From: Deltaproteobacteria bacterium
GTDB taxonomy: Bacteria > Myxococcota_A > Polyangia > JAAYKL01
Direction of reading: 5' to 3'
Assembly: GCA_016936575.1 (NCBI GenBank)
Contig: JAFGXQ010000045.1
Coordinates: 70,664-134,663, forward strand
Length of the DNA: 64,000 nucleotides
The position numbers were made by a program, and so were the translations under genes. Of the stretch, positions 15,512-33,448 are shown piece by piece (positions within the stretch are counted from its first letter, which is position 1; the number at the start of each line of letters is the position of its first letter). Below the pieces are notes generated by a model. The model did no database searches. It was not told the DNA's origin and was given only the letters and a program-made list of their open reading frames with translations.

Positions 15512-16108
15512 CTATGACGGGTCTTTGCATTGTTCAAGAATGTCTGACTTCAAACCGGGGCAACAGGTATTCGGACCGAAGTAGGAACGCCAGATTAAAT
15601 CAGCGAAGCCTTTGCCCTTGGTGATTTGTCCCATTCGCGCGCCGTTCTGCTTCAGAAGTGTTCCCTGACCGGGAATGTAAATAATCTCCACATAACTGCC
15701 CTTATTTAAATCCTTGGTGAAATACGACAAGAATACGTTAATTTTTTTCTGCAGCTCAGTGGTGTCTTTACCCTGCGGTAAATTTTTCGTGAACGTGTCT
15801 TTCAAGTTGTCAATCAACCGCTTTTTGGGAATGGTTCGCTTCATTGACAGGATCAACGCCTTTACCTCTGACTTGTAGATCACCGACCGCATGCTGCACT
15901 CGCCGCTCTCAGAGTAGGCGCTGAGGCTGTAAATATCCACGAATAGAAATTCGCGGATCGCCGTACCCAGCAATTTGAGAGATTTTCCGGCGACGGCTTT
16001 ATTTTTCGATACTGCTCCCACCGCTGGAGACGGCGGAAACACAGTAACCATAACCAACACTGCCAGCGCGACAATGTACCCTTTTCTTGTGCACCATATT
16101 GCTTTCAT
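15512..16108 (-). CDS. Chalcone-isomerase-fold (CHI-like) secreted protein
   Basis: ORF track gives 15512..16132; start preferred at MKAIW. Signal peptide. LKLLGTAIREFLFVDIYSLSAY matches the CHI-fold core strand motif (L.L.G.G.R...V.Y...Y). C-terminal GFADLIWRSYFG. Confidence 0.45.
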   Translation of the reverse strand: MKAIWCTRKGYIVALAVLVMVTVFPPSPAVGAVSKNKAVAGKSLKLLGTAIREFLFVDIYSLSAYSESGECSMRSVIYKSEVKALILSMKRTIPKKRLIDNLKDTFTKNLPQGKDTTELQKKINVFLSYFTKDLNKGSYVEIIYIPGQGTLLKQNGARMGQITKGKGFADLIWRSYFGPNTCCPGLKSDILEQCKDPS

Positions 16109-16141
16109 GCGGGTTCCTTTATCGTTCAGCAAATCCGCGAC

Positions 16142-17308
16142 CTAATCTTCGCAGATTTTCAGTTGAGAAATAAACCACGGCGCGGGGATAGAACAGTCAC
16201 CGCACATCAATGCCACAATCCAAATCCCTTCGTCGGTAATACCGGTGAACGCGTTGCCGTTGTCATCTGTTAATTCAGAAAGGGTCGCATAGGTACCCGC
16301 ATCGATGGTTTTTCGCCAGATTTCATCTGCCATGTTTTCGAGATTCAGAAAATCGGATTCCAGTGCCGAAATCGTCGTATCGGTGTAGTGTGCAACCATA
16401 ATCCCGGCAATCATCGTGGGTGCGAACTCGCGCCCCATCGCGTTGTTCGTCATGCTGCCGGTCCAATCCAAATACACATCGGCGGTGCCGGGCGGCAAAA
16501 TAATCGGCTCCAGGGAACTGAGATCAGCTTCATAATCCAGTTGCACCGAATCATTGTGAATGGTTACCGTTGAATTGTTCGCATCTTCGCGCACATTGAA
16601 CAACGCGAGCATACGCGCATTTTGACCGAGAATGATGCCCGAAGAAAGCATCACCGAATACGAAAAATCTTCAGGTGGAACATTGACAGGATCCAGCAGA
16701 CTCAGCATGGAGGCTTCATCGAGCGCGGATCCCCCGGGAGAAACCAAATCCAGATAATTGAATGTCGTTGTGCTCTGTTCAGTAAAATACACAGCCGGCG
16801 GATTCGCCAAATCCTGCATTGTCCAATCATCACTATTCAACTTTTCAACCAACTCCTCTTCGTTTGCGGACCAAATGGTCACCAGTGCCATCTGTATATC
16901 GCCCTCGCCATCAAGCGGCTGCCCCAGCATGTCCTGAGTCAGATCATCCCATTGGAACGTAATATCGGTGGAGGGAGTTACCGACGTGGCTTCAATTGTC
17001 ATTTCATTGGTGAACGTGTAATTCTGTGCATCCACCAGTGCATACGACACCACGCCATCTGTGACAGGCACAACATCGCACGAAGGTGGCGGTTCGTCTG
17101 CGTCTGTATCGCTGTCGCTGTCACTGTCTCCGTCGCTATCGACATCCGAGTCGCTGTCAGTATCACCGTCACCATCGGTATCTGTATCGCTGTCACTGTC
17201 ACCATCTGTGCCGCTCTGCTCAGTGTCTGAATTACCGCCGCACGACAACATCGCACCAACGCAGAATATCAACACAAAAACAAACAACCATATTACTGTT
17301 TTCGACAT
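16142..17308 (-). CDS. Lipoprotein with a poly(D-S/T/G) tether and a ~300-aa globular domain of unknown function
   Basis: Lipobox AMLSCGG. Tether [41 protein letters not shown] encoded by a DNA repeat at 17092..17227. Confidence 0.55.
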   Translation of the reverse strand: MSKTVIWLFVFVLIFCVGAMLSCGGNSDTEQSGTDGDSDSDTDTDGDGDTDSDSDVDSDGDSDSDSDTDADEPPPSCDVVPVTDGVVSYALVDAQNYTFTNEMTIEATSVTPSTDITFQWDDLTQDMLGQPLDGEGDIQMALVTIWSANEEELVEKLNSDDWTMQDLANPPAVYFTEQSTTTFNYLDLVSPGGSALDEASMLSLLDPVNVPPEDFSYSVMLSSGIILGQNARMLALFNVREDANNSTVTIHNDSVQLDYEADLSSLEPIILPPGTADVYLDWTGSMTNNAMGREFAPTMIAGIMVAHYTDTTISALESDFLNLENMADEIWRKTIDAGTYATLSELTDDNGNAFTGITDEGIWIVALMCGDCSIPAPWFISQLKICED

Positions 17309-17347: not shown

Positions 17348-18766
17348 CTACTGCTCCAGATCCACTGGATGGCCATATAATGTAGGCCGCCAAACCACAT
17401 ATCCGAACGCGGCTTGGCCCAAATCAATTGAACGCACAAGCTGTTCGTCAGCAGCCACCTCGTGCATCAATGCTTTATTACTATACGAAACAAGTGTGTT
17501 GCCATTCGGCAAACGCTGCACATCCCCCAAGGTAGGCGTTCCGAGACCTTCCACACGATACCGCCATATCTCCCGCAACCCGCCGGTATCGCTTGAAAAC
17601 TCGTATTCCAGTGCCTCACTGGTCAGTGTCACATCTGAAAATGAACCACCATTATTGAAAATGAGAATACTGTTGTTGAGCAAATGGTGACCATGCTGAT
17701 ATTTCCACAACCCGTCATTCTGCGTCACCCACGCAACGTCTCCACTTTTATCGAATGCGACAATTTCGCCGTGCTCGTAGTCAGATACCGTAAATAACTG
17801 TTCGGCCATGGAGTAGCGTAACGCATTGCCGTGACACCCGGTTCCCCACGTATCGGCGGTATCGTATATCAAACCGATGTTGCCGTTGGTATCCAACGAC
17901 ATCACACGCGCGCAAACCGCTGAGTTTCCAAATCCGCCTTCCGGAGTGTATTCCAACCAGGCGAACGTGTTGTCATCTACAGGGGTCAAGTCATGCGCGG
18001 CACCCGTCAGCGACGTGAACTGTTTTACTTCCTGGCCATCCATTGACACCAGTTCCACAGCACCGGCGTTTCCCTGATTATTACTCGATACTACCGCCAT
18101 CCATTTGCCGTCGTAGCTCATTCGAGCCCTGGTGCTGTCGCTAAGCGCTGTTGCAGCGTACCACCAAACGATATCGCCGTCGTTGTCTATAATGAATGCC
18201 ATAGGGTTCTGCGAAAAAGAGGCCGCAGTATACGACGCCAAAACGAAAAATCCGGGGGCGACCGACGCTGATTGCGCTACAATGATATCGGCTCGCTGAA
18301 TCACGTTCGTTACCGGTTCAGTCGTGATCACCACATCATGACTGCGATACGTTGTTCCATCAATTACCGCATTCACGCGAACATGGTAGTCAGAAGACCC
18401 CTTCATACCCAGAAGCAATGTTCTGAAATATTCCGCGGTTAACTCCACTGGTGCGGTCATTCCATACTCGCTATCCAACCCGAAGTCGATGGTCGCCGCA
18501 TCGATTTCGTTATCAACATTCGTTGACCATTCCACAATGCCCACTGTTCCGATGGCGTCACTGAGGTTCACAGACACCTCAAACGTGATGTCTCTATCTC
18601 CCGCATCAGTATTGGCATCCGTATTGTCAACTTCAGTTCCGCGGTCGCTATCGTCGGAATCGTCCGAGCGCATACCATCGCCGGCAGCTCTTTCACTGGA
18701 GCAGCTCATCCAGAATACTGCTCCACAAAGTATCGCTAGAAATGTTATGGTTATAGACGCGCGCAT
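17348..18766 (-). CDS. Beta-propeller lipoprotein, arylsulfotransferase-like (tentative), with an N-terminal Ig-like beta-sandwich; paralog of 18788..20560
   Basis: Lipobox WMSCSS. Ig/Fn3-like [72 protein letters not shown]. Propeller blades end in His-rich QHGHHLLNNSILIFNNGG. About 60% identical by eye to the neighbouring gene. Confidence 0.45.
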   Translation of the reverse strand: MRASITITFLAILCGAVFWMSCSSERAAGDGMRSDDSDDSDRGTEVDNTDANTDAGDRDITFEVSVNLSDAIGTVGIVEWSTNVDNEIDAATIDFGLDSEYGMTAPVELTAEYFRTLLLGMKGSSDYHVRVNAVIDGTTYRSHDVVITTEPVTNVIQRADIIVAQSASVAPGFFVLASYTAASFSQNPMAFIIDNDGDIVWWYAATALSDSTRARMSYDGKWMAVVSSNNQGNAGAVELVSMDGQEVKQFTSLTGAAHDLTPVDDNTFAWLEYTPEGGFGNSAVCARVMSLDTNGNIGLIYDTADTWGTGCHGNALRYSMAEQLFTVSDYEHGEIVAFDKSGDVAWVTQNDGLWKYQHGHHLLNNSILIFNNGGSFSDVTLTSEALEYEFSSDTGGLREIWRYRVEGLGTPTLGDVQRLPNGNTLVSYSNKALMHEVAADEQLVRSIDLGQAAFGYVVWRPTLYGHPVDLEQ

Positions 18767-18787: not shown

Positions 18788-20560
18788 CTACATGATAACG
18801 TCAGTCGGAGGCCCGTACAGGGTTGGACGCCACACCACATACCCGAACGCGGTCTGCCCGAAGTTGTATTCCCGCACCATCGTTTGAGAGGAATCCACCT
18901 CATGAATAATGGCCTGGTTGCTATAGGCAACAATTGTGTTGTTATTCGGCAATCGCTGAATATCACCCAGGGTGGGAGTTCCCATATTCGGTACACTGTA
19001 ACTCCATACAAGGCTCATATTTCCTCCGCCACTCATGCTGAACTCCATGCCAACACTGGTCAGATTCACATCGGTAAAAGTACCGGCATTATTGAAGATC
19101 AATAGATTGCCGTTATTCAGCAGCTGGTGCCCGTGCTGCGGTCCCCATGAACCATCATTTTGCGTCAGCCACGAGACATTACCGTTTTTGTCAAATGCAA
19201 CAATCTGATGATGTTCATAGTCGGATACGGTAAATAACCCTTCCGCCTCTGAATACCGCAAGGAATTGCCGTGACAGTTGGCCCCCCAGGTATTTGCGGT
19301 GTCATAAATCAAACTGGTGTTGCCGTTTACATCCAGCGACATCACTCTTGCACATGCGGTCGACATAATGCCGCCGGTGCTTGGTACGTACTCCAGATAT
19401 GCAAAATTGTTGTCGTCAGTCACTGTCAAATCATGCGCGGCGCCTGTCAGAGAGGTAAACTGTTTTACCTCCAACCCGTCCATCGAAATCAGTTCCACCG
19501 ACCCTGCGGTTCCATTGTTGTTGCTCGAAACTACCGCCATCCATTTGCCATCGTAGCTCATACGCGCACGAGTGCTGTCTGCCAGTGATGTGGCGGTGTG
19601 CCACCATACAATGTCGCCGTCCGTATCGGCAATAAATGCCATCGGATTCTGCATCCATGAATTTGCCGAATATGATGCGAGGACCATGAATCCTTCACCG
19701 GGTGTGGTCCCGGCATGACTATCGGTAACCGTTGCGGCCTGTATGGCATTGGTCACCGGCCCGGTCGTGACGTTGTAATCTGGGCTGGTATATGTATTAC
19801 CGTCAATCTCAATTACCACGCGCAAATGGTAGGTGCGTGAGCCTTTCATTCCGAGAAGCAGGGTTCTGAAATCTTGTGCGTGCAAGTCTACCGGCGCTTC
19901 CATTCCGTATGCGGTATCCAGACCGAATTCGATATAGGCGCTGTCGATTTGGTCATCGACATTCGTCGACCATGTGACAATCCCAACGGTGCCGATGGCG
20001 CTGCTGGTAGATGGGTTCACCGTAAATGTAACATCCGTGTCGCTGTCACTGTCAGCATCACTGTCGCTATCTGTATCGCTGTCGCTGTCGGCATCACTGT
20101 CAGTATCACTGTCACTGTCGGTATCGCTGTCGCTGTCAGTATCGCTGTCGGTATCACTGTCACTGTCGGTATCGCTGTCACTATCACTATCGCTATCGGT
20201 ATCGCTGTCGCTGTCGCTATCAGTATCACTATCGCTATCGGTATCACTATCGCTATCGGTATCACTATCGCTATCGGTATCACTATCGCTATCGGTATCA
20301 CTATCGCTATCGCCATCGCTATCAGAATCTCCGTCGCTGTCGGCATCGCCATCGCCATCGCCGTCGGAGTCACTGTCGCTATCGCCGTCAGAGTCGCCAT
20401 CACCGTCAGAATCACTATCCCCATCCGAATCACCATCCGAATCACCATCCGAATCACCATCCACATATACCACGTTACCTTCATCTGTCGTACAGCCCGC
20501 CAGTTGGATTGCCGCCAGTACCGCGCTGAGCCAAAGCACAACGAAAATTGAATATTTCAT
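18788..20560 (-). CDS. Beta-propeller lipoprotein, arylsulfotransferase-like (tentative), carrying a ~150-aa poly(D-S/G/T) tether; paralog of 17348..18766
   Basis: Lipobox LAGCTT. 150 aa of [11 protein letters not shown]...TDSDSD, then [72 protein letters not shown], then a propeller with [19 protein letters not shown]. Confidence 0.45.
20005..20458 (-). repeat. Extended coding tandem repeat (6-nt and 18-nt periodicities: gtatcactatcgctatcg, gtcgctgtcact) encoding (D-S-D-x)n
   Basis: Near-perfect reiteration visible at 20220..20320 (atcggtatcactatcgct x5). It produces overlapping spurious ORFs in all six frames (19874..20551, 19974..20621, 20017..20541). Confidence 0.85.
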
Positions 20561-20653
20561 TCGTCTATTCCTTTCTACGTTCCTCCAAGCCTTCCAGATT
20601 TCGGTTGGAGAAATGCGATAGTTTCTTATTAATTGTATGACACGTTTTCGAAT

Positions 20654-21484
20654 TCAGGGACGCTCCAGATATTCAGTTGTAAAATATAAATCTTTTGTAT
20701 TGGGTATATTTTCTATCTTTTCGATTTTAAAAATTGATTTTCTGCCGTTTTGTTTGTTCGTCATTTCCATATACTTTGATCGATATCTTTTTTTCAACTC
20801 GTCAAGGCATTCAATATTTTTGCTTTTCAGCTCTTTCAGCAGCTCCCCTTCCAAATCAAAATACAGCGCTTTTCGAATGGTATATTCTTCTTTCGCGATC
20901 CAGATTTTCTTTTTTGAATACCCTTCGTCCTCAGCAACGTCTTCATTTTTAGGTTTAACTTCAATCAGCCAACACGAAACACCATCCACCGCTTCTTCCT
21001 TCAGTGTTCTAAACGTGTAGTCTGTCAGCGTCGGTGTGTTCATATCGGCGTATGAAAACTCGCTTCCCATAAATGCCTTGGAACGTTCTGATGTGACAAT
21101 CCGCCGGGTTTTTCTGAGTGCAGGCAGATAAATCCACATATCATCCCCTTTATTTTCATAATCGAACGCAAGCACACCTGTTCCTTTGACGTCCGCCGGC
21201 GATAAGAACCGATATACCCGTTTTTCAGTCTTACCGTTGTCGAATAGTTTGGTAACCATCGCTATCTTGCGCTCTCGCTTTTCGCCTTTTCCGTTCTGAA
21301 TAATCAGCTTCATCACCGCCTCAGAACCATCCAGTTTGCGCGACAATGCAGCGTTTTCCATAATTTCTTTTGCCGTGAGCGTCGCCCCTGCATCTGCATT
21401 CATACCAGCGGAAATCACCAATCCAACAATAACCCCCAACACAAGCATGTTCGAAAACAAATATCGTCCTACTCTCATATCCAT
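20654..21484 (-). CDS. LolA-like outer-membrane lipoprotein-sorting/carrier protein (MMPL-associated family)
   Basis: 276 aa. Signal peptide, then an unclosed beta-barrel-type sequence (VLAFDYENKGDDMWIYLPALRKTRRI, SEFSYADM) typical of the LolA_like family encoded next to MMPL exporters. Basic K/E-rich C-terminus. Confidence 0.55.
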   Translation of the reverse strand: MDMRVGRYLFSNMLVLGVIVGLVISAGMNADAGATLTAKEIMENAALSRKLDGSEAVMKLIIQNGKGEKRERKIAMVTKLFDNGKTEKRVYRFLSPADVKGTGVLAFDYENKGDDMWIYLPALRKTRRIVTSERSKAFMGSEFSYADMNTPTLTDYTFRTLKEEAVDGVSCWLIEVKPKNEDVAEDEGYSKKKIWIAKEEYTIRKALYFDLEGELLKELKSKNIECLDELKKRYRSKYMEMTNKQNGRKSIFKIEKIENIPNTKDLYFTTEYLERP

Positions 21485-21519: not shown

Positions 21520-23841
21520 CTACGCCGCGCCGGGTAATTCCTCGGTCGAATTTCCACTCTCTGTAGGCTCCAGAAATTTTGGTTTAAATACAATCACCAC
21601 TGCCGGCAGCACCACCAGCGCACCGATAAGACACGAGACAATAGAAACCACCACCAGTAACCCGAAAAACTGTACAGGAAAAAACTGCGACAGAAGCAAC
21701 ACCACAAACCCAACCACCACCGAAAAACCATTGAACAGGATTCCCCGTCCCGCCGAACGCAATGTTATTTTCACCGCATCCATCGGTTCCGCCAGCCTGC
21801 GTTCCTCGCGATAACGCCACAGAAAATGAATGGTGTAATCAATGCCAACACCAATCATAATCGATGAAAGCATCGCGGTAATCAAATTCAATTCAATGCC
21901 CCAATACCCCATCAACCCGAACAATATTGAAACAGCAATTCCCAAAGGAATCATCGAAATCAGCCCCGCAACAACCGATCGCATTACAGCGCCTACCAAC
22001 ACACCACACAGGAGAATAGACAAAAACAAACTCAACAACTGCCCCCGTACGATGTAATCCACCATGTTGGTAATCACATCCAATAAACCGCCCACAATCG
22101 TGAACGGTGCCTGAGGATGGGCATCAATGTACGCCTGTGTGTAATGGACCACATCGGTTGCCGCCCGGGTTCCACTGTCTCGTACCTGCGCAAGGATTTG
22201 CGCATTGCGATAATTGAAGTCTACGAGTTTATTGAAATCCTCAATATCGCCGCTAAGCGAGTACAGCAGAAAGTACTGCGCAATCAAATCTCGTTTGTCC
22301 GGAACTTTATCCGCAGATGCGGCGTTGTCGTTCATTACTCTGTTCATTCCGCGCACCATTGCGGCGATTGATGATGTGGTACCCACCAGTGGATGCTTTT
22401 TCAGATGCCTTTCCAGTTTATCGATTTCCTTCATCACCGCAGGGTCTTTGATGTCGCCCTTGGCAACGATCGACACATTCGCCCACCCTCCGAAATGTTC
22501 ATTCAACATATGGGTGGCGCGCCAAACCGGATCGTTTTTTTTGTAAAAACTCATCGGATTGCTGTCTACAACAATAAATGCCGCACCTGTTGCAAATGCC
22601 ACGAGCAGAACCCCGCTGATGATTAAAATTCCTCTGGATTTTTTTGACGCGACATCCCCTATGAAATTCAACAAGCGACTCATCAATGTCGCCACATCCT
22701 GAATCTTTTTTTCTTTTTTCTTCTTCGATTTCGATTTCGGCAATACTGCCAATACCGCGGGAATAAACACCAAGCTGCCCACCATTGCAAAGGCAACACC
22801 GGCAGCAGCCAGAATTCCCAGCTGCTCTGCCGGAATGATGATATGCGAGAGCAGACAAAGAAGCCCCACCATCGTGGTGATTCCGCTTGCCAGAATGGGT
22901 TGATTTAAATGCTGAACAGTCGCATGGGCAAGCTGCTTCGAATCGAGTTCCTTGTTTTCAGCACGTTCTTCCTGATATCTCGCCATAATGTGAATTCCGT
23001 AATCATTTGCCACAGCAAGAAGGATTACGGGAAGCAACACGGTGACAGTATGAATTTTCCATCCGAGGAACGCGAGCAGACCAAGCGCAAACACGATTGC
23101 CATCACTGTCATAATAAACGGCATCAACACGCCGCGTGCTTCCCGGAAACATAACAGCAAGAAAATAAACATCAGCACCAAACCGACCGGAAGAAAACGA
23201 GACATGTCCTTTCGAATATCTTTCGAAAGCTTCACGCGGGTAACCGGCATCCCACCAATTAACGCATCTCCGGGCCCTTTCGTCTGTTTAATCAGTTGCT
23301 CCAGCTGACCAACCACTTTTTCATCTGAAGCGTCCGTCGCCAGAAAACCGATAAGCACCGTGTGTTTGAAATCCTTCGATACGATGTTCCCGTACACCAA
23401 CTCATTTTCTTTTAAATCATGACGTAGCGTTTCCTTCTGCTTCTCGCTTTTCGGTATACGGCGAATCGCCTGTTCCACCACCAGCTCTCCGCATTCGGCA
23501 CTGATATGTTTGGCGGTGAAAAGAGTGATTACCCGATCGAACTCTTTGATATGTTCAAACTTTTTCGACATTTCCTTCAACCGGTGAATCACGTCGATAT
23601 CGAGAATATCATCGGCAGAAAGCACAATCATGATCATATCGGTTCCACCGAACAGCTTTTCAATTTGGGTCAGATTTTTTCGAGTGGGCAAATCCACAGG
23701 CAGTTGATTCTTCATCTCCGTATCCAACTCAATGTGCCGAAGTTGAAAAGCAGCGGCAACCGTAACTGCAACAAAAATAACGATAATCGGCCAGGGGTGT
23801 GAGGTGACAAAATTTGCAAAACTGTTCTTCCGCTGTTTCAT
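21520..23841 (-). CDS. MMPL/RND-superfamily lipid exporter (HpnN/MmpL-like, 12 TM with two periplasmic loops)
   Basis: 773 aa. The N-terminal TM segment is followed by a periplasmic domain, a six-TM block (LMFIFLLLCF...GLLAFLGWKIHTVTVLLPVILLAVANDYGIHI), and then a second periplasmic domain and a second TM block (GIAVSILFGLMGYWGIELNLITAMLSSIMIGVGIDYTIHFLWRYREE). This is the classic duplicated RND/MMPL topology. Confidence 0.8.
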   Translation of the reverse strand: MKQRKNSFANFVTSHPWPIIVIFVAVTVAAAFQLRHIELDTEMKNQLPVDLPTRKNLTQIEKLFGGTDMIMIVLSADDILDIDVIHRLKEMSKKFEHIKEFDRVITLFTAKHISAECGELVVEQAIRRIPKSEKQKETLRHDLKENELVYGNIVSKDFKHTVLIGFLATDASDEKVVGQLEQLIKQTKGPGDALIGGMPVTRVKLSKDIRKDMSRFLPVGLVLMFIFLLLCFREARGVLMPFIMTVMAIVFALGLLAFLGWKIHTVTVLLPVILLAVANDYGIHIMARYQEERAENKELDSKQLAHATVQHLNQPILASGITTMVGLLCLLSHIIIPAEQLGILAAAGVAFAMVGSLVFIPAVLAVLPKSKSKKKKEKKIQDVATLMSRLLNFIGDVASKKSRGILIISGVLLVAFATGAAFIVVDSNPMSFYKKNDPVWRATHMLNEHFGGWANVSIVAKGDIKDPAVMKEIDKLERHLKKHPLVGTTSSIAAMVRGMNRVMNDNAASADKVPDKRDLIAQYFLLYSLSGDIEDFNKLVDFNYRNAQILAQVRDSGTRAATDVVHYTQAYIDAHPQAPFTIVGGLLDVITNMVDYIVRGQLLSLFLSILLCGVLVGAVMRSVVAGLISMIPLGIAVSILFGLMGYWGIELNLITAMLSSIMIGVGIDYTIHFLWRYREERRLAEPMDAVKITLRSAGRGILFNGFSVVVGFVVLLLSQFFPVQFFGLLVVVSIVSCLIGALVVLPAVVIVFKPKFLEPTESGNSTEELPGAA

Positions 23842-23854: not shown

Positions 23855-25402
23855 CTAGAACGATAATTTCATTTCCGCGTATCCGGCGCTCTGCAACTGA
23901 TCGATCATTCCGAACAATGTATCATCAGGCCCCATGTACAATTCCGCACCTACGCTGACCGTCATATCGTCGACCAACTTGTACGCAATTTTCGGGTACA
24001 CCAACCACTCTCCGGTTGAAAAGTTCGCCATACCGAACGCCACGAGAGAAAGTGTGTCGTGCAGCGTTGTCCAGGTGATACGCAACGACGCACCGTGCTG
24101 AATCTTTTCTGTATGGCCGTGAATCAGCTGATTTTTTACCGCCAATTCCCGGTACGCCATATAACTTCGCGTTTCCTCCGGAATGAATCCATAATTCTGA
24201 ATCACGGTATCCAGATGATCCAGGTCCAAATCCATGGCCAGAGAATTGATAAATTCCTCAATGGTGCTGTCACCGTCCGGTACGGTTTCCCAATCAAGTA
24301 CATATCGCCCGATATATTGACCGATAAGCAACACATTACCGATTTCCTTGTCCGCTCCAAGTACATAGTACACATCAGGCTTCGGAACATGAATACGCTG
24401 GTCACGAATGCTCGGTTTCTCGGTGGGGTACCGAAACGCAGCCTCTCCTCGCAGTCCGAATAGAGAAGCAATCGTGGTAGAAAAATCGGCCCCCACCACG
24501 TGATGTTTGTATGCACGACGCGAAACCGTCACCGATGCCGGAACGTCTGTAAGCTGGTACGACTCGAGCGACAGACCCGGCGTTAAAGAAAAGCCGTACA
24601 AATACGAAAGCGACATCTCGAACGATGAGAAAATCAGATGCGTCTTTCCGGCAATCAATCCGTTCAACACATCAAAGTCAGGATACACCGGGTCGCTAAA
24701 AACAATAGCATCTGACAACGCCACTTTCGGCATTACCGACGGAACATATATGGGCATCCACACGACTTCCAAGCGCAATGGGTTCAAGTTCAACCGCGCA
24801 CGCAATCCGATGTTGGCCAAACGCCGGTCGTCTTCTTCAGGCGAGCGAACCCGAATATCGACAGGTGTGATACTATTTGTTGGATTGATGCCATCGGCGC
24901 GTCCCCAAACAACAATCTGTTGACCCAGCCTCAGTTCCAAGCGACTGAGGTATAGATTGACATACGCTTCACGAAGCATAATTGATGTGTCAAACTCGCC
25001 TATCGACTCTCCTCCGCCCGATCGTTCTGTAGGTTGTCCCAGATATGTTTCATCATTCAAGTACCCTCCTTTCAATCGAAGCTCGGCGAAACCGTCCGTC
25101 ATCCGTTCTTTCACCGCCCGTAACTTCAACGCCAGTTCCCCATACCCTGTTTTCAGCTCAGCCCTGGGCTGTCGCGGCATTTTTCCGACAAACACGTCGC
25201 CGCGGATGTAGCCGTTCAAATCGAATGTCAAAGGATTCTGTACGACCGTTTCGGTTGATTCCCCATTGGAATCCACAGGCGATGCAGGGGCGGTATCTGT
25301 TTCATTCCCCGAAACCGCGTCGTCGAACAATCCGGCCGAAGCGATACCGGGTATGTGCGCAAGAATAAGAAATCCAATCAGTGCCTTAATACCATGTTTC
25401 AT
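23855..25402 (-). CDS. Secreted outer-membrane beta-barrel protein (possibly DUF1302-like, a family often co-encoded with LolA-like/MMPL genes)
   Basis: Signal peptide MKHGIKALIGFLILAHIPGIASA. Alternating hydrophobic beta-strand pattern; the C-terminus ends in an aromatic (..EMKLSF). It sits 13 bp upstream of the MMPL gene. Confidence 0.45.
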   Translation of the reverse strand: MKHGIKALIGFLILAHIPGIASAGLFDDAVSGNETDTAPASPVDSNGESTETVVQNPLTFDLNGYIRGDVFVGKMPRQPRAELKTGYGELALKLRAVKERMTDGFAELRLKGGYLNDETYLGQPTERSGGGESIGEFDTSIMLREAYVNLYLSRLELRLGQQIVVWGRADGINPTNSITPVDIRVRSPEEDDRRLANIGLRARLNLNPLRLEVVWMPIYVPSVMPKVALSDAIVFSDPVYPDFDVLNGLIAGKTHLIFSSFEMSLSYLYGFSLTPGLSLESYQLTDVPASVTVSRRAYKHHVVGADFSTTIASLFGLRGEAAFRYPTEKPSIRDQRIHVPKPDVYYVLGADKEIGNVLLIGQYIGRYVLDWETVPDGDSTIEEFINSLAMDLDLDHLDTVIQNYGFIPEETRSYMAYRELAVKNQLIHGHTEKIQHGASLRITWTTLHDTLSLVAFGMANFSTGEWLVYPKIAYKLVDDMTVSVGAELYMGPDDTLFGMIDQLQSAGYAEMKLSF

Positions 25403-25403
25403 G

Positions 25404-26873
25404 TCAGAACCTGTACGATAATGCGAGCGATGAAAAGTGATAACTGCTCACATATACTCCGCTATTCGCTGTGGCTGAGGGCTGTTCAGGATAGTGGGCA
25501 TCGCAATTGTTGTTATCGGTATACGGCGCCTCACAAAAGCTTCCCGGAACTTGTTGATAAATCTGTCCGTTACTTTCGCTCATTGAAAATGGAATTTCAT
25601 ATACATAGGTGTATGACAGGGACACATCAAATCTTCCCAATATCAATGTTGTGCCCGCGCTCGCACCGAGTCGATGGGTGGCGGGAAAATCCACATAGGC
25701 AAAATTCTTTCTACTCGCTGCTGTTTCATAGAATGTACCTGCACGTATAATAAGACGATTGTCTATCACGTTCATGTCACCCCCAAACCGCACACTGAAC
25801 GTGTTTTTCCAGTGTTTCGGTATGACAATCTCTCCGACTTCAACACTGACCCCCATGACATCAGCGTACAGTCCCTTGCCGTCGATGATGTATTCATCCA
25901 TCTGGGACCAGAACTCATAGCGAACATCAAGTTCCAAGTCGTACAGATCTCTCTTTCCGCGCAAATGAATGTATCTCGCACCTGCCCGCAGCTCCATCGG
26001 AAGGGTCATTGCAAACGTCACGTTGTTATCAGGATTGTCGTTTCTGCTGAGCTCCGGCGCTTCTTCAAGAGAAAGAAACACTGGTGTGAGCGAAAGCTCG
26101 CTGTCCGCGTGTAGATAAGTAGGAATCAGCCGTCCGGAAAACGCCAGTTGAAAAGAAGGCATTGGATGCACCCAGAATCCGAGAATTGCCGAAATCCCGG
26201 TATGGTCTGCGCCTTTCACAGTAGCCGCCATATCAAACAGGCTGGAAACCGGGCTGACCTGCCCGGGAGTCGTATCTCCGTTCACAATTAATTGCAATTC
26301 CAACTGTGCCAAATCCACCCACTGCAGACTGACCCCCACACCGAACACATCCTTGTACCGCCATGCCGCACTGAGGCTGTAATACAGAATTTTTGTATCC
26401 CGCCGTGTCAACATATAGCGCTGACCACCGTCTTGCGAAAATTCCTGCGTGGAAATACCGGCCGGTGCGTAGGTTCCCAACGCAAACGCCCAGCTCTGAA
26501 GGCCGAAATCCGTCGATACGACAATCATCGGCCCGAGCAACTGCCAAGTGTGCTCGTTATTCACAGTGTCAAATGTTACGTAGTCGGGAATACCCTCGCC
26601 GGCCTCGCTCCAGTCCAGTAAAGGCGCACGCCTGAATTGTTCATGCGCGTAACCGAACCGATTACTCAGATATAGTTGCGTGCCGTGTAGAGATGTCAAT
26701 CCCGCGGGGTTATATTCAATGGCGGTGGCATCATCAGCTTTAGCAACAAAGGCACCACCTCGACCAGCGGCCACCGCGCCCTGATCTCCCACCGATATTC
26801 CAGCAGACAACACATCATTCGAAAACATGACGATGATTCCCCCCAACGCGCATAGAACAATAAAAAAAGCCAT
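25404..26873 (-). CDS. FadL/OmpP1/TodX-family outer-membrane hydrophobic-compound transporter
   Basis: ORF track gives 25404..27020, but that extension overlaps the upstream gene. Start preferred at MAFFIVLCALGG (signal peptide). The N-terminal hatch motif GAVAAGRGGAFVAKADDATAIEYNPAGLT matches the FadL consensus (G.GRAGA..AEDAS...YNPAG). The C-terminus ends in ...LSYRF. Confidence 0.6.
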   Translation of the reverse strand: MAFFIVLCALGGIIVMFSNDVLSAGISVGDQGAVAAGRGGAFVAKADDATAIEYNPAGLTSLHGTQLYLSNRFGYAHEQFRRAPLLDWSEAGEGIPDYVTFDTVNNEHTWQLLGPMIVVSTDFGLQSWAFALGTYAPAGISTQEFSQDGGQRYMLTRRDTKILYYSLSAAWRYKDVFGVGVSLQWVDLAQLELQLIVNGDTTPGQVSPVSSLFDMAATVKGADHTGISAILGFWVHPMPSFQLAFSGRLIPTYLHADSELSLTPVFLSLEEAPELSRNDNPDNNVTFAMTLPMELRAGARYIHLRGKRDLYDLELDVRYEFWSQMDEYIIDGKGLYADVMGVSVEVGEIVIPKHWKNTFSVRFGGDMNVIDNRLIIRAGTFYETAASRKNFAYVDFPATHRLGASAGTTLILGRFDVSLSYTYVYEIPFSMSESNGQIYQQVPGSFCEAPYTDNNNCDAHYPEQPSATANSGVYVSSYHFSSLALSYRF

Positions 26874-26922
26874 CTGAAACTGTCGATGCGGCCGATAGAA
26901 CACAGTCACCCCTTTGCCTCTC

Positions 26923-27918
26923 CTATACCCCTGTACAATCCGCTGACATGGTGTTTCTGAACAACGAAGTAACATCTTCAGCTTCAAAGAAAGCCGATAG
27001 TCGATAACCGATTCGCCCATCCGCTGTCACACAGCTGGGTACGATTTCAGCTGCATCCATAATTCCGCGAAAGGTCGCCCAGTTTCCATTTTGCCCACAG
27101 GCGCTGGCGCAATAGCCCGAAATCGCTTCCACTGAAAACGATTCAAACGGATCTTCCGGCGGTGTCGGAAAACCGGTTTCCGGTAAAGCGCCGTCTTTAC
27201 TGCACAATCCGGCCTTGATACACATACAAATTTGATTGACCGACTCCTGCGGCAGGCACCCTTCAAGATGCCCCGACGAAATCTGACTACAGTTTTCATT
27301 AAAACCGAACGTAACATGCAGATCATGAATCGGCGTGCTGTTCGCGGGAGACAACAACGGCGCACACATCAGAGGATCAGTCTGCGGCCCCAAATGAAAA
27401 TATAACGTCTGTGCCTCGGTGTTTCTGAATCTGCACTGATAACCGTTTGACGGAATGACATCAACGCCGATATTCAACGATTCATCCATAAAACAATACG
27501 ACTCAATCGTCGAAAAATCATCGTTTGAATATCCGGTAGAAGGCGTGCGCCAGGCCGGGCCCACACTCAATTGCAGCCTGGAGAAGGCCGCGAGTTCGTC
27601 GTCATCGGCTTCTGCAATGTCAACCACGAACAGCACATTCAGCAGGTAATTCGAAATCTCGTATTCCCACATGCTGTCGAGTGTCACGTTCAGCCTGGCC
27701 GGTTGGTCAACGGTTAAACGGGTAAATCGATAGGCCCGGCCTGTCACGTCCTCGGGCGTGCAGTTGCACTGAGTATTCTCCCCTGTCGCATCGCCTTGGA
27801 TAAAGACATCCGGAGCCGGCGGCTCAATAATGTCCACACAAGCAACAACGGTCATCATCGCAACGGCCAATGTAGTTGTCAGCCTATACGCCTGCGACGT
27901 TCTCACCGCTCTCTTCAT
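26923..27918 (-). CDS. Cysteine-containing secreted lipoprotein of unknown function
   Basis: Start preferred at MKRAVRT. Signal peptide with VVACVD lipobox-like site, about 20 Cys, no recognisable domain. Confidence 0.4.
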   Translation of the reverse strand: MKRAVRTSQAYRLTTTLAVAMMTVVACVDIIEPPAPDVFIQGDATGENTQCNCTPEDVTGRAYRFTRLTVDQPARLNVTLDSMWEYEISNYLLNVLFVVDIAEADDDELAAFSRLQLSVGPAWRTPSTGYSNDDFSTIESYCFMDESLNIGVDVIPSNGYQCRFRNTEAQTLYFHLGPQTDPLMCAPLLSPANSTPIHDLHVTFGFNENCSQISSGHLEGCLPQESVNQICMCIKAGLCSKDGALPETGFPTPPEDPFESFSVEAISGYCASACGQNGNWATFRGIMDAAEIVPSCVTADGRIGYRLSAFFEAEDVTSLFRNTMSADCTGV

Positions 27919-27955
27919 GTGAAATACATGCTTACAGATTCGCACAAGGGTCATC

Positions 27956-28756
27956 CTATTCTGCGCACTCCGCACTTGCTGCTACGACTTCTGTCAACTG
28001 AAGACCTGAAACGACCTGACCAGTTACATTACTTGCGGTAAGATGCATGCAGAACAACTCGCCGTCATGTTCGCATTCTTCACATGCAAATCCCATCGTC
28101 GGCGCAGTGTTGCAAATCTTTTCAGGCGTGGGGTCTGTAAACATGATTGTAAACAGTTCGTAAATATCTCTGAAATCAACTGTGGCTTTGAGGGTACCAT
28201 CGATAAATGCATCTCCTCCGTTCACCAGAGACCCTGAAATACTCAAATCATGAATGGTTGCTACTTCGAAGGCACCATTTCCTTCAATAACGGTTTCCAG
28301 ATTTGTCGGACCAATCAGAAAATCGGGATTGTCCGCAATCGTGCCGCTGCACGAGGCCGTGGCACTACACATATCCTGCACACCGTCATTCATCGTTCCC
28401 ATCGAAGTCGTCAGCGCGGATTGAGCGATTTCTACAACGGTAAAGGCAAATATCGGAACATATCCGCCCAACTCCGCCCCCACACCGGACGGTGTCCAGT
28501 TTGCAGCCGGAATTTCATCCAGGGCATAGGTATTCGCCAAAATAACACTAACGTCTTCCAGGGGCGTTGCATCTAAAGTTTCGCTGGGGGTATCTGATTC
28601 CGAATCCACATCGGTTCCGCTGTCAGATGCAGTGTCACTATCGTTCGTGTCGATATTATCAGAATCATCGGCCTCATCCCCGGTTTTGTCGCCACAACTC
28701 AGCAGTAGCAGACAAAACAACCCTACCAATCCGGACAATTTCAATTGCGTTTCCAT
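27956..28756 (-). CDS. Lipoprotein with acidic D/S/T tether; unknown globular domain
   Basis: Lipobox LLLSCGD. Tether KTGDEADDSDNIDTNDSDTASDSGTDVDSESDTPSETLD. Confidence 0.5.
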   Translation of the reverse strand: METQLKLSGLVGLFCLLLLSCGDKTGDEADDSDNIDTNDSDTASDSGTDVDSESDTPSETLDATPLEDVSVILANTYALDEIPAANWTPSGVGAELGGYVPIFAFTVVEIAQSALTTSMGTMNDGVQDMCSATASCSGTIADNPDFLIGPTNLETVIEGNGAFEVATIHDLSISGSLVNGGDAFIDGTLKATVDFRDIYELFTIMFTDPTPEKICNTAPTMGFACEECEHDGELFCMHLTASNVTGQVVSGLQLTEVVAASAECAE

Positions 28757-28789: not shown

Positions 28790-29812
28790 CTATACCCAGA
28801 TGCCTGCCACTGTGGCCATTGTGAACCCCGACGCGGCACTTCCCAGCATGAGTTTTTCATCCTTTTGCGGTTCTCTTTGAGAAAGCAGATAATCAAACAC
28901 CACACCAATCGTGGCGCTGGCGTTATTTCCGTACAAGTGATGCGTGTATACTCCCCTATCCAATTCTGCACCGATTTTCGACAGAACCTTCCGCGTCATG
29001 AATTCGCTGGGTTGATGAAATAAGTAATGCGCAACCTCGTTGGGATCCCATCCCAATTTCTTCAACACCTCCATCAGACGAGGTGCAATATACTTATGAA
29101 GTTTCATCAGTTCCGTCGATGATGAACTGAATGTGCCGTGAATCGGCACCTGGCAGAGAGACCAGTGGTTAGGCAGAGAATGCGTGTCGGTACTGACAAC
29201 CCGAACACATCCGTTTGACCAGGGATTTTTGCTCACCAGAAAACAAGCTGCTGCGTTTCCGATGGTCAAACCGGCGGCTTTGTACTGCAAATCGGTAAGT
29301 GTTTGAATATCGAACGACAAAAACTCCCGCGAGAGTTCAGCTGTACAAACCAACGCAGTCTCGTAGTCATCGTGCATATTCAGGTACGCACAGGCGACCT
29401 GCACAGCTTCCAAATGTCCCACGCACGCACTGGTTACGTCAAAAGCATGCGTCTGTGTGATGCCAAGATTCGCACACACTTCCATTGCCGTAGCAGGCTC
29501 AAAGTACTCTCTTGCCACCCCACCGAAAATCACCAAATCCACATCGTCCAAAGCAGTGCTGTTTCTCTCGAGGCAGTTAGCAGCTGCCTTTGCCGCATAC
29601 GCCGCGACCCTTGACTCAGGATTGAAATCCAGGTAGCGCACCTGAGTATTACATTTGCTCAAAATCTTTTTGGTTGCCGCTTCAATGGCTGTCCACGCAA
29701 GCTTATTTCCCTTGTAGTTTTGTTTGACCAAATCGATAATCGCAGCATTGTCATATCGTGTATCAGGTACATGAATTCCCGGCTTAGATAAATATAGTTC
29801 TGGCATCGTCAT
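28790..29812 (-). CDS. FabH-like beta-ketoacyl-ACP synthase III / condensing enzyme (KAS III family, DarB/OleA-type candidate)
   Basis: Start preferred at ATGACGATG (MTMPELYL), with AGGAAC 6 nt upstream. Catalytic triad context: Cys in DVTSACVGHLEAV, His in YLFHQPSEFMTRKVL, Asn in LYGNNASATIGVV. The C-terminus is GSAASGFTMATVAGIWV. Confidence 0.75.
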   Translation of the reverse strand: MTMPELYLSKPGIHVPDTRYDNAAIIDLVKQNYKGNKLAWTAIEAATKKILSKCNTQVRYLDFNPESRVAAYAAKAAANCLERNSTALDDVDLVIFGGVAREYFEPATAMEVCANLGITQTHAFDVTSACVGHLEAVQVACAYLNMHDDYETALVCTAELSREFLSFDIQTLTDLQYKAAGLTIGNAAACFLVSKNPWSNGCVRVVSTDTHSLPNHWSLCQVPIHGTFSSSSTELMKLHKYIAPRLMEVLKKLGWDPNEVAHYLFHQPSEFMTRKVLSKIGAELDRGVYTHHLYGNNASATIGVVFDYLLSQREPQKDEKLMLGSAASGFTMATVAGIWV

Positions 29813-30023
29813 TGAATTGTTCCTGTATGTGTTTCCAGAAATCGTCCATGCAAGACAGCTCAGCATGTAAAGCCGTCTTAATCGAAGATTTAAACAATGG
29901 TGCGAACGAAGCGAGGAAAGGGGTTGATATAAATGAACCTTTTTTACTTATTCTTTTTACAGAGGAAAATGATTGCAGCTTATTTGAAAAATTTCGTTCA
30001 TCTCAAATCATTTCAACATTCTG

Positions 30024-31103
30024 TCACAAAAAAGTCTGATAAAATTCGGCGTAGTCACATCGAATCTGCTCTTCTGTTAAGCCAAACTTTTCCAGATTGT
30101 ATGCATGTTTGCTTTCGAATGCGCGTTGTTTCTGAGCGGTGTTATCAATCACCGTTCGCAATTCAGCAGATATTTCTCCACCTACAAACGGAATGATTTC
30201 GTCCATCAGTCCGTCGAAATCCTTCATCAAACGATCAAACGTCACAACCTTGACATTGGAACGATTAATTCTTCCGCTTTCCCAATCCCGCTGAAAACGC
30301 AAACTGAGTTCGAGTAACGCGGCATACAGCCGCTTGATAAAATGCGTTCGTTTTTCCTCGGGTAAACTCCAGAACCCGAATGCGCCGTCCAAAACGCCGG
30401 TAACCAGACTGAGACCGGACGGCACAGTCGAGAGCGGATCTCTTGCCATGTATAAAATTTTCGCATCCGGAAACCGATTCAAGAAGGAAGGCAGACGAAT
30501 GCCAAGTGAAAACAGCTTCCCTACAATGCGTTCTTTCTTTTCACTCACCAACACGCGGCGCCAACATTTCTCAATCCATTTAAAGTCGCGTTTGGCCGTA
30601 TCCCGCAGGTCCGGATCAAACATATCTCTCAAGTCCTTTTTCGACCAAGATAAGAAGAATCCGTAAATGAAAAAGCCGTCAAAGTAGCGAAACATCAGCG
30701 CCGGATCATCGGTTTCCACAGATGTCAGATTCGTCTTGTGCGCAGCATGGGCGTGATGTTTTGCAGGACTGAACTTCTCCATAATCGGAAGAAACGGCTT
30801 CAGCAAAGTCTGCAGCGTTAAAGAGGGATAGATCATCTTCCACAGTCTGGAACCCGTCCCGAACCCGTTATCAGTTAAAAACCGCTGCAGGAACGTTGTT
30901 CCGCTTCGAGGATTTCCCACTATCACAATCGGACTCGCAACTCGTTTTTTACGAAGCGACGGAAAAAACAAATGGTCGAGCACCATAAATACCGATACTG
31001 TCGCATGCAGCAGAAAAATGCCTGAAAATATAAAAACAGGAGAGATTACCTTACGAAATGCGCGTATCAATGCTTTGTGCACCAGAAACATTCTTGAAAT
31101 CAT
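30024..31103 (-). CDS. PAPS-dependent sulfotransferase, membrane-anchored (N-terminal TM helix)
   Basis: 5'-PSB motif IVGNPRSGTTFLQRFL, 3'-PB motif ILYMARDPLSTVPS. N-terminal hydrophobic helix ISPVFIFSGIFLLHATVSVFMVL. Confidence 0.7.
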   Translation of the reverse strand: MISRMFLVHKALIRAFRKVISPVFIFSGIFLLHATVSVFMVLDHLFFPSLRKKRVASPIVIVGNPRSGTTFLQRFLTDNGFGTGSRLWKMIYPSLTLQTLLKPFLPIMEKFSPAKHHAHAAHKTNLTSVETDDPALMFRYFDGFFIYGFFLSWSKKDLRDMFDPDLRDTAKRDFKWIEKCWRRVLVSEKKERIVGKLFSLGIRLPSFLNRFPDAKILYMARDPLSTVPSGLSLVTGVLDGAFGFWSLPEEKRTHFIKRLYAALLELSLRFQRDWESGRINRSNVKVVTFDRLMKDFDGLMDEIIPFVGGEISAELRTVIDNTAQKQRAFESKHAYNLEKFGLTEEQIRCDYAEFYQTFL

Positions 31104-31515: not shown

Positions 31516-33165
31516 CTAAGGTGCCAGAGTGAGTTGGCCTTCATCGAGTGAAATCTGGTAGTAGCCGTGGTCGTCCCAGGCCAGTTTCTGACCATTTTGA
31601 GTAAGTGTTCCGCCATCCACGGTAACACGCAGACATTTTCCGGACGGAAAATTATCGGGCAGGTTCCACGACCAACTATGGCCGTCACCGCTGCTCGACG
31701 GACTCACAGACGAAAATGTTTTTTGTCCAATCCAATATGCCCCCACATTCACCACGCTGTCTATCCATACATCTCCGTATGATTTCATTTCGTTGACACC
31801 CGATACCATAGAACTGATTGGAATCGCGTTATACGCACCGTCTCCATATCCAGTGAACCCGTGCACGCAGTAAACTGCCCATCCGCCTTGATTACGCGCG
31901 TTGTTTGCCGGCACGCCGAACGTATACGCGTCCGCCCCCGCCGCTGGAATATATGACGGCAGATTAAAGGGATTTGAGTTGTCATTCGGCATAATAATAG
32001 CGCCGGCCACACCGCGGTTGATGATATACCGCGTACTTGCGGGAGAAGAACAAACCGTGCTCCCCTCTGGCGCCGCCATCGTATAGATTTCGATGTCCAG
32101 CGCGCTCTCCAGCAACTGCTCCGCGGTGTCAATCGACGAAGTATTACATGTGTGATCAGTGGTGTGATTTCCGATTTCGTGCCCACCGGCAACCGCATCG
32201 TGCCAAATCGATGCATTCTCGTCGTTCCAATTGGTCACAAGGTAGAATGTGTAGTGAACCCCCAGGCCTGAGAGCGTCCCCCATTCCTGAATGGTTGATT
32301 GGGTTCCATCATCGAGAGAATAGCTCACCGCCGCAGAATATCCCGCCCAATTCAACACCTGCAAATTGCCGGCCGCTCCAGAGGGCTTCGCCTGTCCACT
32401 GCTTCCCACATCCGGAAGTCCGCAATCATACACAACCCCCGGGTCTGAATCTGAATCGGAATCAGCATCGGAATCGGCGTCTGTATCGCTATCGCTGTCT
32501 GTATCGCTATCGCTGTCTGTATCGCTATCGCTGTCTGTGTCAGTGTCACTGTCAGTATCGGTATCGCCGTCTGTTGTACCGCCGGCATTGCAGCAAATGG
32601 CGGCCCAACCGTTTTCCGGACTGGGCACACATGGCGTTGCGCCGACAATTTCGCCTCCCAAACCGCCCCAGGTCGGATCACCGGTACACGCCCATTCGCT
32701 CGATACACATTCATACGCGCAGTCAGCATCTGAGTCGGTATCGCCATCGGAATCCGTGTCACTATCTGAATCCGTGTCACTATCCGAATCCGAATCGGCG
32801 TCGGAGTCGGTATCAGTGTCTGTATCTGCATCACTATCTGAATCCGTGTCACTATCCGAGTCTGTATCAGTGTCTGAATCCGTATCGCTGTCCGAGTCGC
32901 TGTCAGCGTCTGAATCTGTATCGCTGTCGGAATCCGTATCGCTATCCGAGTCGCTGTCAGCGTCTGAATCTCCGTCACCATCGGCATCGGCATCACTGTC
33001 TGAATCAGAGTCACCGTCGGAATCCCCGTCGGAATCCCCGTCTCCGTCGGAATCACTGTCGGAGTCCGCATCCGCGTCAGTCAAATCGACCGAAGCATCC
33101 TCTTGTCCGCATGCCATCAAAAACAATTGCGCCCCGAAAATAATAATATACAAATACTTGCTCAT
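31516..33165 (-). CDS. Lipoprotein with a ~210-aa poly-Asp repeat tether fused to a polysaccharide-deacetylase (CE4/NodB) domain
   Basis: ORF track gives 31516..33183; start preferred at [21 protein letters not shown] (lipobox LMAC, ACGGAG RBS). CE4 motifs: [11 protein letters not shown] (TFDDG-like) and [11 protein letters not shown] (H-S/T-x-x-H). Two acidic repeat blocks. Confidence 0.65.
32397..33087 (-). repeat. Two blocks of coding tandem repeats (gtatcgctatcgctgtct-type 18-mers and cgaatccgtgtcactatc units) encoding poly(D-S/T/A/G)
   Basis: Near-identical 18-nt units visible at 32470..32530 and 32750..32800. Produces long shadow ORFs (32037..33143 plus, 32366..33304 plus, 32352..33071 minus). 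Confidence 0.85.
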
Positions 33166-33448
33166 ATCGCTCCGTATCCCCATTCAGATTCAAAGGATTA
33201 GTCCGTTCAAAACATACTTTTCGTGCCAACCCATAGGCAACCATCCAAACAGTACCGCCACCATCTACAACGGCTCAAAGGGATTGCGCGCACGCACAAA
33301 ATGACCAGATTTGGACATTGAAGAGAAAAACTGTACACAACACGAAGGCGTGAATTCTCACATTTAAAAGAAGTGAAACTGAGGCCCAACGACAACAGTT
33401 CTGATTTCATTGACCCATGAATACTGACGTTATTATTTGGCATGAAAG

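Follow-up and report, generated by a model that had tools for sequence, protein, structure and literature searches.

What a FabH-like condensing enzyme and a sulfotransferase make together, when they are encoded side by side and outside any fab operon, is the question raised by a 64,000-nucleotide stretch of a metagenome-assembled genome (MAG) of a Deltaproteobacteria bacterium (Myxococcota_A, Polyangia; contig JAFGXQ010000045.1, positions 70,664 to 134,663), hereafter the window. The pair, a 3-ketoacyl-acyl carrier protein synthase III (KAS III)-like enzyme and a sulfotransferase (ST) dependent on 3'-phosphoadenosine 5'-phosphosulfate (PAPS), had been read in a first-pass annotation as the likely biosynthetic core of the locus. 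The genes are real and linked, but that annotation missed that they form the cytoplasmic end of an operon of 12 genes which closes with two aryl-sulfotransferases of the ASST type, and related sets of genes occur in many phyla. We put the chances at about even that this operon serves an envelope-spanning, two-step sulfation, in which KAS and ST would make a sulfated lipid carrier that is exported and donates its sulfate to ASSTs at the cell surface.

PAPS is confined to the cytoplasm, and since it cannot leave this compartment, bacterial sulfation outside the cytoplasm is an open problem. While ASSTs are widely used as biocatalysts, the sole physiological case that is understood is Cpz4, from one Streptomyces antibiotic pathway. 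According to a 2026 review, neither the substrates that ASSTs use in nature nor their functions in physiology have been identified (PMC13426309).

Both head genes are minus-strand open reading frames (ORFs) as first called, of 358 aa for the KAS and 359 aa for the ST (Table 1). The start of the KAS gene is probably Met19 (position 29812), giving a protein of 340 aa, because this start agrees with the family consensus and with a deposited 340-aa protein of a 'Deltaproteobacteria bacterium' MAG that is 100% identical to the window KAS. ST lies upstream, 211 bp from this start. From 29866 down to 15512 the minus-strand genes form a tight string, with gaps of no more than about 95 bp or overlaps. 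The location of the KAS outside a fab operon was borne out, as fabD, fabG, acpP and plsX are neither adjacent to it nor present among the approximately 45 larger window ORFs that were scanned.

The window KAS, here KAS_A, matches the KAS III families PF08545/PF08541 (ACP_syn_III_C, 1.4e-13, and ACP_syn_III), and its translation contains the expected Cys, His and Asn motifs (TSACVGH, FHQPSEF and YGNNASAT). The catalytic residues C130, H266 and N296 are invariant in 24 homologues and in 40 of 40 related ORFs; this triad is common to the whole KAS III superfamily and does not discriminate for membership of FabH. The placement of KAS_A comes from its scores against curated models and every chain in the PDB rather than from a reference tree. 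It scored 82.8 bits against the FabH model TIGR00747 (cut-off 292.1) and 99 bits against PRK09352 (cut-off 249), and even its highest-scoring model, PRK09258, gave 117.8 bits for a cut-off of 285. A housekeeping FabH was rejected on these failed cut-offs together with the gene context, in agreement with the first-pass view. Among all PDB chains the nearest solved relatives were the Xanthomonas OleA structures (3e-15 with the single sequence), and a KAS_A family profile matched OleA with 110.5 bits (7e-31), the best FabH with 91.8 bits and E. coli FabH with 67 bits. The YFEP motif of KAS_A aligns with YLEP of OleA and places Glu105 in the loop after beta-strand 4, before the Pro; this Glu is invariant in 24/24 homologues and 40/40 sequences. 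Its counterparts, OleA Glu117 and PpyS Glu105, are the base that defines non-decarboxylative head-to-head condensing enzymes, and PpyS and PyrS use this Glu in making dialkyl-4-hydroxy-2-pyrones (PMC4578411). KAS_A has in common with OleA and PpyS/PyrS the thiolase fold, the Cys-His-Asn triad and the extra catalytic Glu, while it differs from OleA in a context of sulfation and transport instead of olefin, beta-lactone or quorum-sensing functions. The Ole olefin pathway was rejected as oleBCD genes were found neither in the window nor among the recurrent gene families of 83 KAS_A loci.

The ST matches Sulfotransfer_3 (6.4e-14) and Sulfotransfer_1, and the two motifs reported for it were recovered in translation (GNPRSGTTFL and RDPLSTVPS). 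The 5'-phosphosulfate-binding loop GNPRSGTT and the 3'-phosphate motif RDPxxxVPS are invariant in 52 ST homologues, and identity within the family is 55-80% across phyla. An AlphaFold2 (AF2) model of the ST (pLDDT 91.6) had the mycobacterial sulfotransferases Stf1 (2ZQ5) and Stf9 (2Z6V) as its best folds, with a TM score of 0.68, and also matched TPST and the ST domain of CurM; some homologues are labelled by JGI as the menaquinone sulfotransferase Stf3. The N-terminal transmembrane helix of the first-pass annotation stood in part. The model begins with a basic amphipathic helix (residues 2-16) followed by a conserved, very hydrophobic helix (21-46), with a Kyte-Doolittle mean of 2.23 over the 19-mer of residues 23-41 (family median 2.09). 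Whether this helix spans the membrane is left in doubt by the basic residues that flank it on both sides and by the soluble Stf1 and Stf9, which likewise bear N-terminal helical extensions. Membrane association of the ST is plausible, and so is the membrane-resident, lipidic acceptor that had been suggested for it. Sulfation of capsule or lipopolysaccharide (LPS) glycans was rejected, as no glycan context surrounds the ST orthologues; their neighbours are instead KAS III-like genes, adenosine 5'-phosphosulfate (APS) kinase/CysNC/CysD, lipid-transport genes and ASSTs.

The two ASSTs at the far end of the operon were less readily recognised. As the Pfam assignment was weak and a search of the PDB with the single sequence gave no match, an AF2 model was built for the product of 17348-18766 (pLDDT 86.8), and Foldseek matched its beta-propeller fold to E. 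coli ASST (2.4e-16) and Cpz4 (7.5e-11) with probability 1.0. The best match of the ASST family profile was to Cpz4 (2e-12). Invariant His258, His312 and His358 of the family align with His252, His356 and His436 of the E. coli enzyme and with their Cpz4 equivalents, so that His358 is the counterpart of the sulfo-histidine, His436; Cys285 and Cys311 are also invariant. The window ASSTs share the beta-propeller, the catalytic His trio and the extracytoplasmic location with enterobacterial AssT, which requires dedicated DsbL/DsbI. They differ from it in sequence (about 12% identity), in being lipoproteins with acidic linkers and in lacking adjacent dsb genes, and while the enterobacterial loci are without a donor-synthesis pathway, the window ASSTs are encoded together with a candidate one. 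The ASSTs of Bacteroidota and Marinimicrobia bear type IX secretion system (T9SS) or dockerin tails, which mark surface or secreted proteins. As the ASSTs are lipoproteins here and carry such tails elsewhere, the sulfate donor must leave the cytoplasm.

The linkage of these genes was analysed in two independently anchored sets of related loci (numbered L below), by comparing six-frame ORFs with the window proteins. The ST-anchored set holds 80 loci from species-representative genomes of at least eight phyla, drawn from Myxococcota/Polyangia, KSB1, Fibrobacterota, Bacteroidota, Ignavibacteriota, Alpha- and Gammaproteobacteria (including Ketobacter) and many Marinimicrobia. ASST genes were found in 65 of the 80 (81%), often in 2-6 copies and with a median gap to ST of 146 bp, and a same-strand KAS III-like gene in 39, of which 26 have a gap of less than 300 bp and 12 have the gene approximately 2 kb downstream; APS kinase/CysNC, MMPL, LolA-like and DUF1302-like genes were also recurrent. 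The KAS_A-anchored set consists of 80 metagenomic loci and three long contigs, and its percentages are taken from the 28 loci of at least 8 kb. These loci encoded the DUF1302-like barrel in 89% of cases, the LolA-like protein in 82%, the FadL-like barrel in 79%, ASST in 75%, MMPL in 57%, an ST of the same family in 54% (54% identical to the window ST) and PAPS-synthesis genes in 32%. Among ST-anchored loci of 12 kb or more, 48% hold the triad of KAS, ST and ASST; for KAS_A-anchored loci of 8 kb or more the figure is 46%. In 41 of 48 loci the gene that directly follows KAS_A is the DUF1302-like one, whose family occurs in 92 related loci, 42 of them ST-anchored. Unbiased clustering, all loci against all, arrived at the same core and added a conserved lipoprotein family, 'unk388' (51 loci), and a START/SRPBCC-like protein in Marinimicrobia. 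The functional link between a KAS III and a PAPS-type ST that the first-pass annotation had drawn is thus upheld by co-occurrence of the families in related loci. As the ASSTs are the most constant neighbours of ST, the likely purpose of the pair shifts from a sulfated lipid end product to a carrier that donates sulfate outside the cytoplasm.

In KAS_A-type clusters a DHHA1-domain protein, CysNC and CysD frequently come after the ST (L085:13551-14531, L086:14805-15767 and eight more loci). The DHHA1-domain protein is absent from the window; we take it to be probably of the NrnA class, which includes phosphatases of 3'-phosphoadenosine 5'-phosphate (pAp), and as an NrnA-like pAp phosphatase it would probably complete a self-contained PAPS sulfation cassette.

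In the ST-anchored loci the KAS III-like gene usually belongs to a second subfamily, KAS_B, which is 18-20% identical to KAS_A. The best solved relatives of KAS_B, ahead of any FabH, are MxnB (8.6e-52) and CorB (1.4e-50), two ketosynthases that form the pyrones in myxopyronin and corallopyronin. At the position of the KAS_A Glu an aliphatic residue is found in both, Ile or Leu in KAS_B and Val in MxnB and CorB (PMC4578411). KAS_B differs from the latter enzymes in standing alone, with no polyketide synthase (PKS) assembly line. The window itself has no KAS_B gene, and a tblastn search of it for KAS_B (MxnB/CorB-like), APS kinase and FAAL-ACP was negative. Two phylogenetically separate classes of alpha-pyrone-forming head-to-head ketosynthases are known (PMC4578411, PMC5724707), and KAS_A and KAS_B resemble one each. 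Both are KAS III-like (PF08545/PF08541), with no chalcone-synthase family match. That both pyrone-type classes seem to have been recruited to these loci is our main reason for proposing that the carrier is a lipid 4-hydroxy-pyrone or a similar acidic enol.

The proposed two-step sulfation can be set out as follows. KAS_A would condense two fatty-acyl thioesters head-to-head. The resulting lipid would bear an acidic enol hydroxyl, and its most plausible structure is that of a dialkyl-4-hydroxy-2-pyrone or a beta-keto compound related to it. The Stf-like ST, at the inner membrane, would then sulfate the enol hydroxyl from PAPS and so generate an activated, aryl-sulfate-like ester. Because PAPS is cytoplasmic and the ASSTs lie outside, a lipidic donor needs a route of just the kind that the operon encodes, with an MMPL/HAE3 pump, a LolA-like carrier and a DUF1302-like outer-membrane barrel; these could pass the sulfated lipid outwards, and more speculatively the FadL-like barrel may bring the spent carrier back. 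The two ASST lipoproteins would bind the sulfate as a sulfo-histidine intermediate and transfer it to extracytoplasmic acceptors. What the analysis itself demonstrates are the enzyme families, their catalytic residues, the layout of the operon and the linkage of the genes across phyla; the donor role of the carrier and the acceptors are what we infer from the whole.

The logic has a precedent in the Cpz (caprazamycin/liposidomycin) pathway of Streptomyces, where a small carrier whose hydroxyl is acidic comes from a condensing enzyme dedicated to it, receives its sulfate from a PAPS-ST and then serves an ASST as donor. There the triketide pyrone is reportedly made by a type III PKS, Cpz6 (Tang et al., 2013). 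The pyrone is sulfated by the PAPS-dependent Cpz8, and the ester is then the donor for the ASST Cpz4 (PMC4257720, PMC6731281). Condensing enzyme, PAPS-ST and ASST are likewise all encoded in the window operon, and by sequence Cpz4 is nearer to the window ASST family than E. coli AssT is. In contrast to Cpz, the carrier synthase here is KAS III-like (OleA/PpyS-like in the window, MxnB/CorB-like elsewhere), the hosts are diderm, the ASSTs are lipoproteins or secreted proteins served by an MMPL, LolA-like and outer-membrane-barrel route, and the genes are spread over many phyla with no antibiotic pathway attached. The present system works like Cpz but is not a strict member of its type, as it lacks both a type III PKS and an antibiotic pathway and has an added envelope-trafficking module.

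The literature searched (KAS III/FabH with ASST and sulfotransferase; ASST in Marinimicrobia; DUF1302/DUF1329 with sulfotransferase) did not describe such a system. Our wider proposal, which we advance tentatively and at slightly less than even chances, is of an extracytoplasmic sulfation pathway unrecognised so far, in which a KAS III and a PAPS-ST would produce a lipid pyrone or enol sulfate as a membrane-borne shuttle and as the long-sought natural ASST donor, and which would be shared by diderm phyla comprising Myxococcota, Bacteroidota, Ignavibacteriota, KSB1, Fibrobacterota, Marinimicrobia and Alpha-/Gammaproteobacteria. If true, the gene set would give a concrete answer, testable with two or three genes, on the natural ASST donor and on extracytoplasmic sulfation, and would provide a cargo for the puzzling DUF1302/LolA-like/HAE3 transport sets. 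The system also points to still unidentified sulfated products of abundant marine and soil bacteria.

Several points weigh against the two-step sulfation. The likeness of KAS_A to OleA is at the level of the family and only modestly better than that to FabH (110 against 92 bits), its likeness to PpyS and PyrS is drawn from published catalytic residues rather than from direct sequence comparison, and the parallel between ST and Cpz8 is similarly one of role rather than of directly compared sequences. The products of KAS_A and KAS_B are predicted from sequence, and the direction of transport is an assumption. APS kinase and CysDN were not seen in the window, in which CysH and sulfite reductase lie at 58-62 kb. 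The adjacency of KAS_A and ST as such is not kept in the closest relatives, where ST is unlinked from the KAS/transport/ASST operon (the sister MAG, L007, L008, L019 and L076); in the sister MAG these genes are split over two contigs, with the KAS at the head of the transport operon and ST by itself. The association of ST with KAS_A is thus one of families and genomes and not a conserved adjacency. Finally, 15 of the 80 ST loci have no ASST in the available DNA; about half of these are short contigs and seven are at least 15 kb long.

The alternative that fares best, although we regard it as unlikely, is essentially that of the first-pass annotation, in which the sulfolipid is itself the end product, placed in the outer membrane by the MMPL pump, LolA-like carrier and barrels, with the ASSTs remodelling it or acting on unrelated substrates. 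MmpL8, which exports mycobacterial sulfolipid-1, provides a parallel, and the ST is nearest to mycobacterial Stf enzymes. The Stf and MmpL systems of mycobacteria (sulfolipid-1, S881) also resemble the window in that a lipid acceptor is combined with an MMPL encoded together with the ST, but the identity of the ST to Stf is only about 17-19% and the envelope architecture differs; to our knowledge neither ASSTs nor a KAS III are part of those systems. A complete lipid-export route is encoded in the operon, and the same trio of outer-membrane barrel, LolA-like protein and HAE3/MMPL pump makes up the DUF1302/DUF1329/BNR/RND (HAE3) sets of Pseudomonas, from which the window differs in having no BNR protein and in coupling the trio to KAS, ST and ASSTs. 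Such DUF1302/DUF1329/RND sets have been proposed as exporters of an envelope component (bioRxiv 2020.07.04.188060). However, an end product would leave unexplained the constancy of ASSTs beside ST in 81% of loci, often in several copies, their surface-exposed or secreted nature, and the recruitment of two pyrone-type ketosynthase classes.

The operon could also be envisaged as making a sulfated pyrone or resorcinol-like compound that diffuses as a signal or antibiotic, with the ASSTs as tailoring or resistance enzymes; photopyrones and dialkylresorcinols are examples of signals, and sulfated adipostatins of natural products. PpyS-type pyrones do act in signalling (PMC4578411), and a cassette of type III PKS, ST and PAPS genes yields sulfated adipostatins (PMC12135136). 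The 55-80% identity of the ST over at least eight phyla, the abundant marine Marinimicrobia included, and the dedicated envelope lipid-trafficking apparatus nevertheless resemble core envelope physiology rather than a strain-specific product, and no receptor or regulator gene is conserved across the related loci, so that we consider this reading very unlikely. A shade less probable again is that the system operates inwards, surface ASSTs and the FadL-like channel capturing or detoxifying environmental phenols and aryl sulfates while KAS and ST perform a separate lipid modification. FadL/TodX channels import hydrophobic aromatics, and ASSTs take many phenols in vitro (PMC13426309); against this, PAPS-synthesis genes and the probable pAp phosphatase lie inside related clusters, KAS and ST are translationally close in 26 loci, and RND/MMPL pumps usually export. 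A chance adjacency of an ordinary extra FabH and an unrelated glycan sulfotransferase, to which the generic triad and the annotation of KAS_A as FabH by some pipelines might point, is scarcely credible given the FabH-model scores (83-99 bits for cut-offs of 249-292), the failure to find fab or glycan genes nearby and the reciprocal co-occurrence in both sets of loci.

Table 1. Genes of the window operon, listed from the ST gene downstream.
Feature	Coordinates	Strand	Evidence or remarks
PAPS-dependent sulfotransferase, Stf-like (PF13469/PF00685), hydrophobic N-terminal helix	30024..31103	-	Pfam, motifs, AF2 model
KAS III-like condensing enzyme, OleA/PpyS-like KAS_A subfamily	28790..29866, likely start 29812	-	Pfam, PDB ranking, invariant residues
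Lipoprotein without known family (lipobox LLSC, acidic linker)	27956..28756	-	Homologues at same position in L001, L005, L085, L153
Cys-rich lipoprotein without known family, adjoining FadL-like barrel	26923..27975	-	Homologue in sister locus L001
FadL/TodX-type outer-membrane channel for hydrophobic compounds	25404..27020, likely start near 26873	-	PF03349 1.4e-17
DUF1302-like outer-membrane beta-barrel	23855..25402	-	PF06980 2e-7
MMPL/HAE3-family RND lipid transporter	21520..23841	-	PF03176 1.9e-45, TIGR00921 HAE3 3.9e-95
LolA-like periplasmic lipid carrier, DUF1329-related	20654..21484	-	PF17131 8.9e-55
ASST-type aryl-sulfotransferase lipoprotein 1, long Asp/Ser/Thr linker	18788..20560	-	PF05935 + PF14269; paralogue of 17348-18766
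ASST-type aryl-sulfotransferase lipoprotein 2	17348..18766	-	AF2 model, fold, family profile, His trio
Conserved lipoprotein, 'unk388' family	16142..17308	-	Present in 51 related loci
Chalcone-isomerase-like protein, operon end, membership uncertain	15512..16132	-	PF16036 1.4e-21

The remaining members of the operon are listed in Table 1. The MMPL/HAE3 transporter also gave weaker matches to HpnN, BstA and MmpL3. The 'unk388', 'unk266' and 'unk350' lipoproteins had no Pfam, NCBIfam or PDB match, also with the family profile. The 'unk388' family is characterised by an invariant C-terminal CxxC..P.P motif and commonly occurs as a pair of paralogues, of which one adjoins the ASST and the other the FadL-like barrel (for example L085:2956-4080 and L086:8713-9813). 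A homologue of the terminal chalcone-isomerase-like protein, which may be lipid-binding, was seen only in the Myxococcales locus L005. A scan of 15-34 kb for promoter and terminator consensus sequences gave nothing above shuffled expectation.

Acidic Asp/Ser/Thr linkers (DSDSDTDSD...) directly follow the lipobox Cys in the products of 18788-20560, 31516-33183, 16142-17308, 17348-18766 and 27956-28756. Their Asp/Ser repeats give rise to spurious long ORFs in other frames or on the other strand (19874-20551, 19974-20621, 32037-33143 and 32366-33304, all plus strand) and to false MSCRAMM/Sdr matches in NCBIfam; such ORFs, together with antisense ORFs in GC-rich related loci, were ignored as artefacts. 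Of these lipoproteins, that of 31516-33183, on the same strand and directly upstream of ST, is a polysaccharide deacetylase (CE4) with two acidic repeat blocks. It has a weak homologue near ST in L006, a possible hint at glycans as acceptors.

The Marinimicrobia version of the locus (L057:5521-18086 and approximately 40 other loci) combines ST, a START/SRPBCC-like protein of 200 aa, an outer-membrane barrel and KAS_B, and is flanked by tandem ASSTs with dockerin/T9SS sorting domains and by leucine-rich-repeat and cytochrome-c proteins with dockerins.

Just upstream of the window cluster, on the opposite strand, are genes for a secreted RCC1-repeat protein and a WYL/WCX-domain helix-turn-helix regulator (33449-34414 and 35042-36055), and a GILT/DsbA-like thiol-disulfide oxidoreductase of 531 aa is encoded at a distance of 6 kb from the operon (37441-39036). 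MeaB and two methylmalonyl-CoA mutase subunit genes at 40365-45694 are unrelated to the sulfation genes and could supply branched or odd-chain acyl-CoA. Two large ORFs of 821 and 651 aa (47202-49667 and 50253-52208) have no Pfam match, and in the 48-50 kb region both the AT skew (-0.30) and the GC skew (-0.25) are negative to an unusual degree. Adjacent steroid-5-alpha-reductase-like (PF02544) and 3-beta-HSD/epimerase-like genes at 52395-54135 form a possible sterol or polyprenoid modification pair in this myxobacterium-like genome. An assimilatory sulfate-reduction block at 58196-63987 encodes a PAPS/APS reductase (CysH), a GltD-like flavoprotein with Fe-S domains, a sulfite reductase, a cysteine-synthase-like pyridoxal-phosphate enzyme and a siroheme-type methylase.

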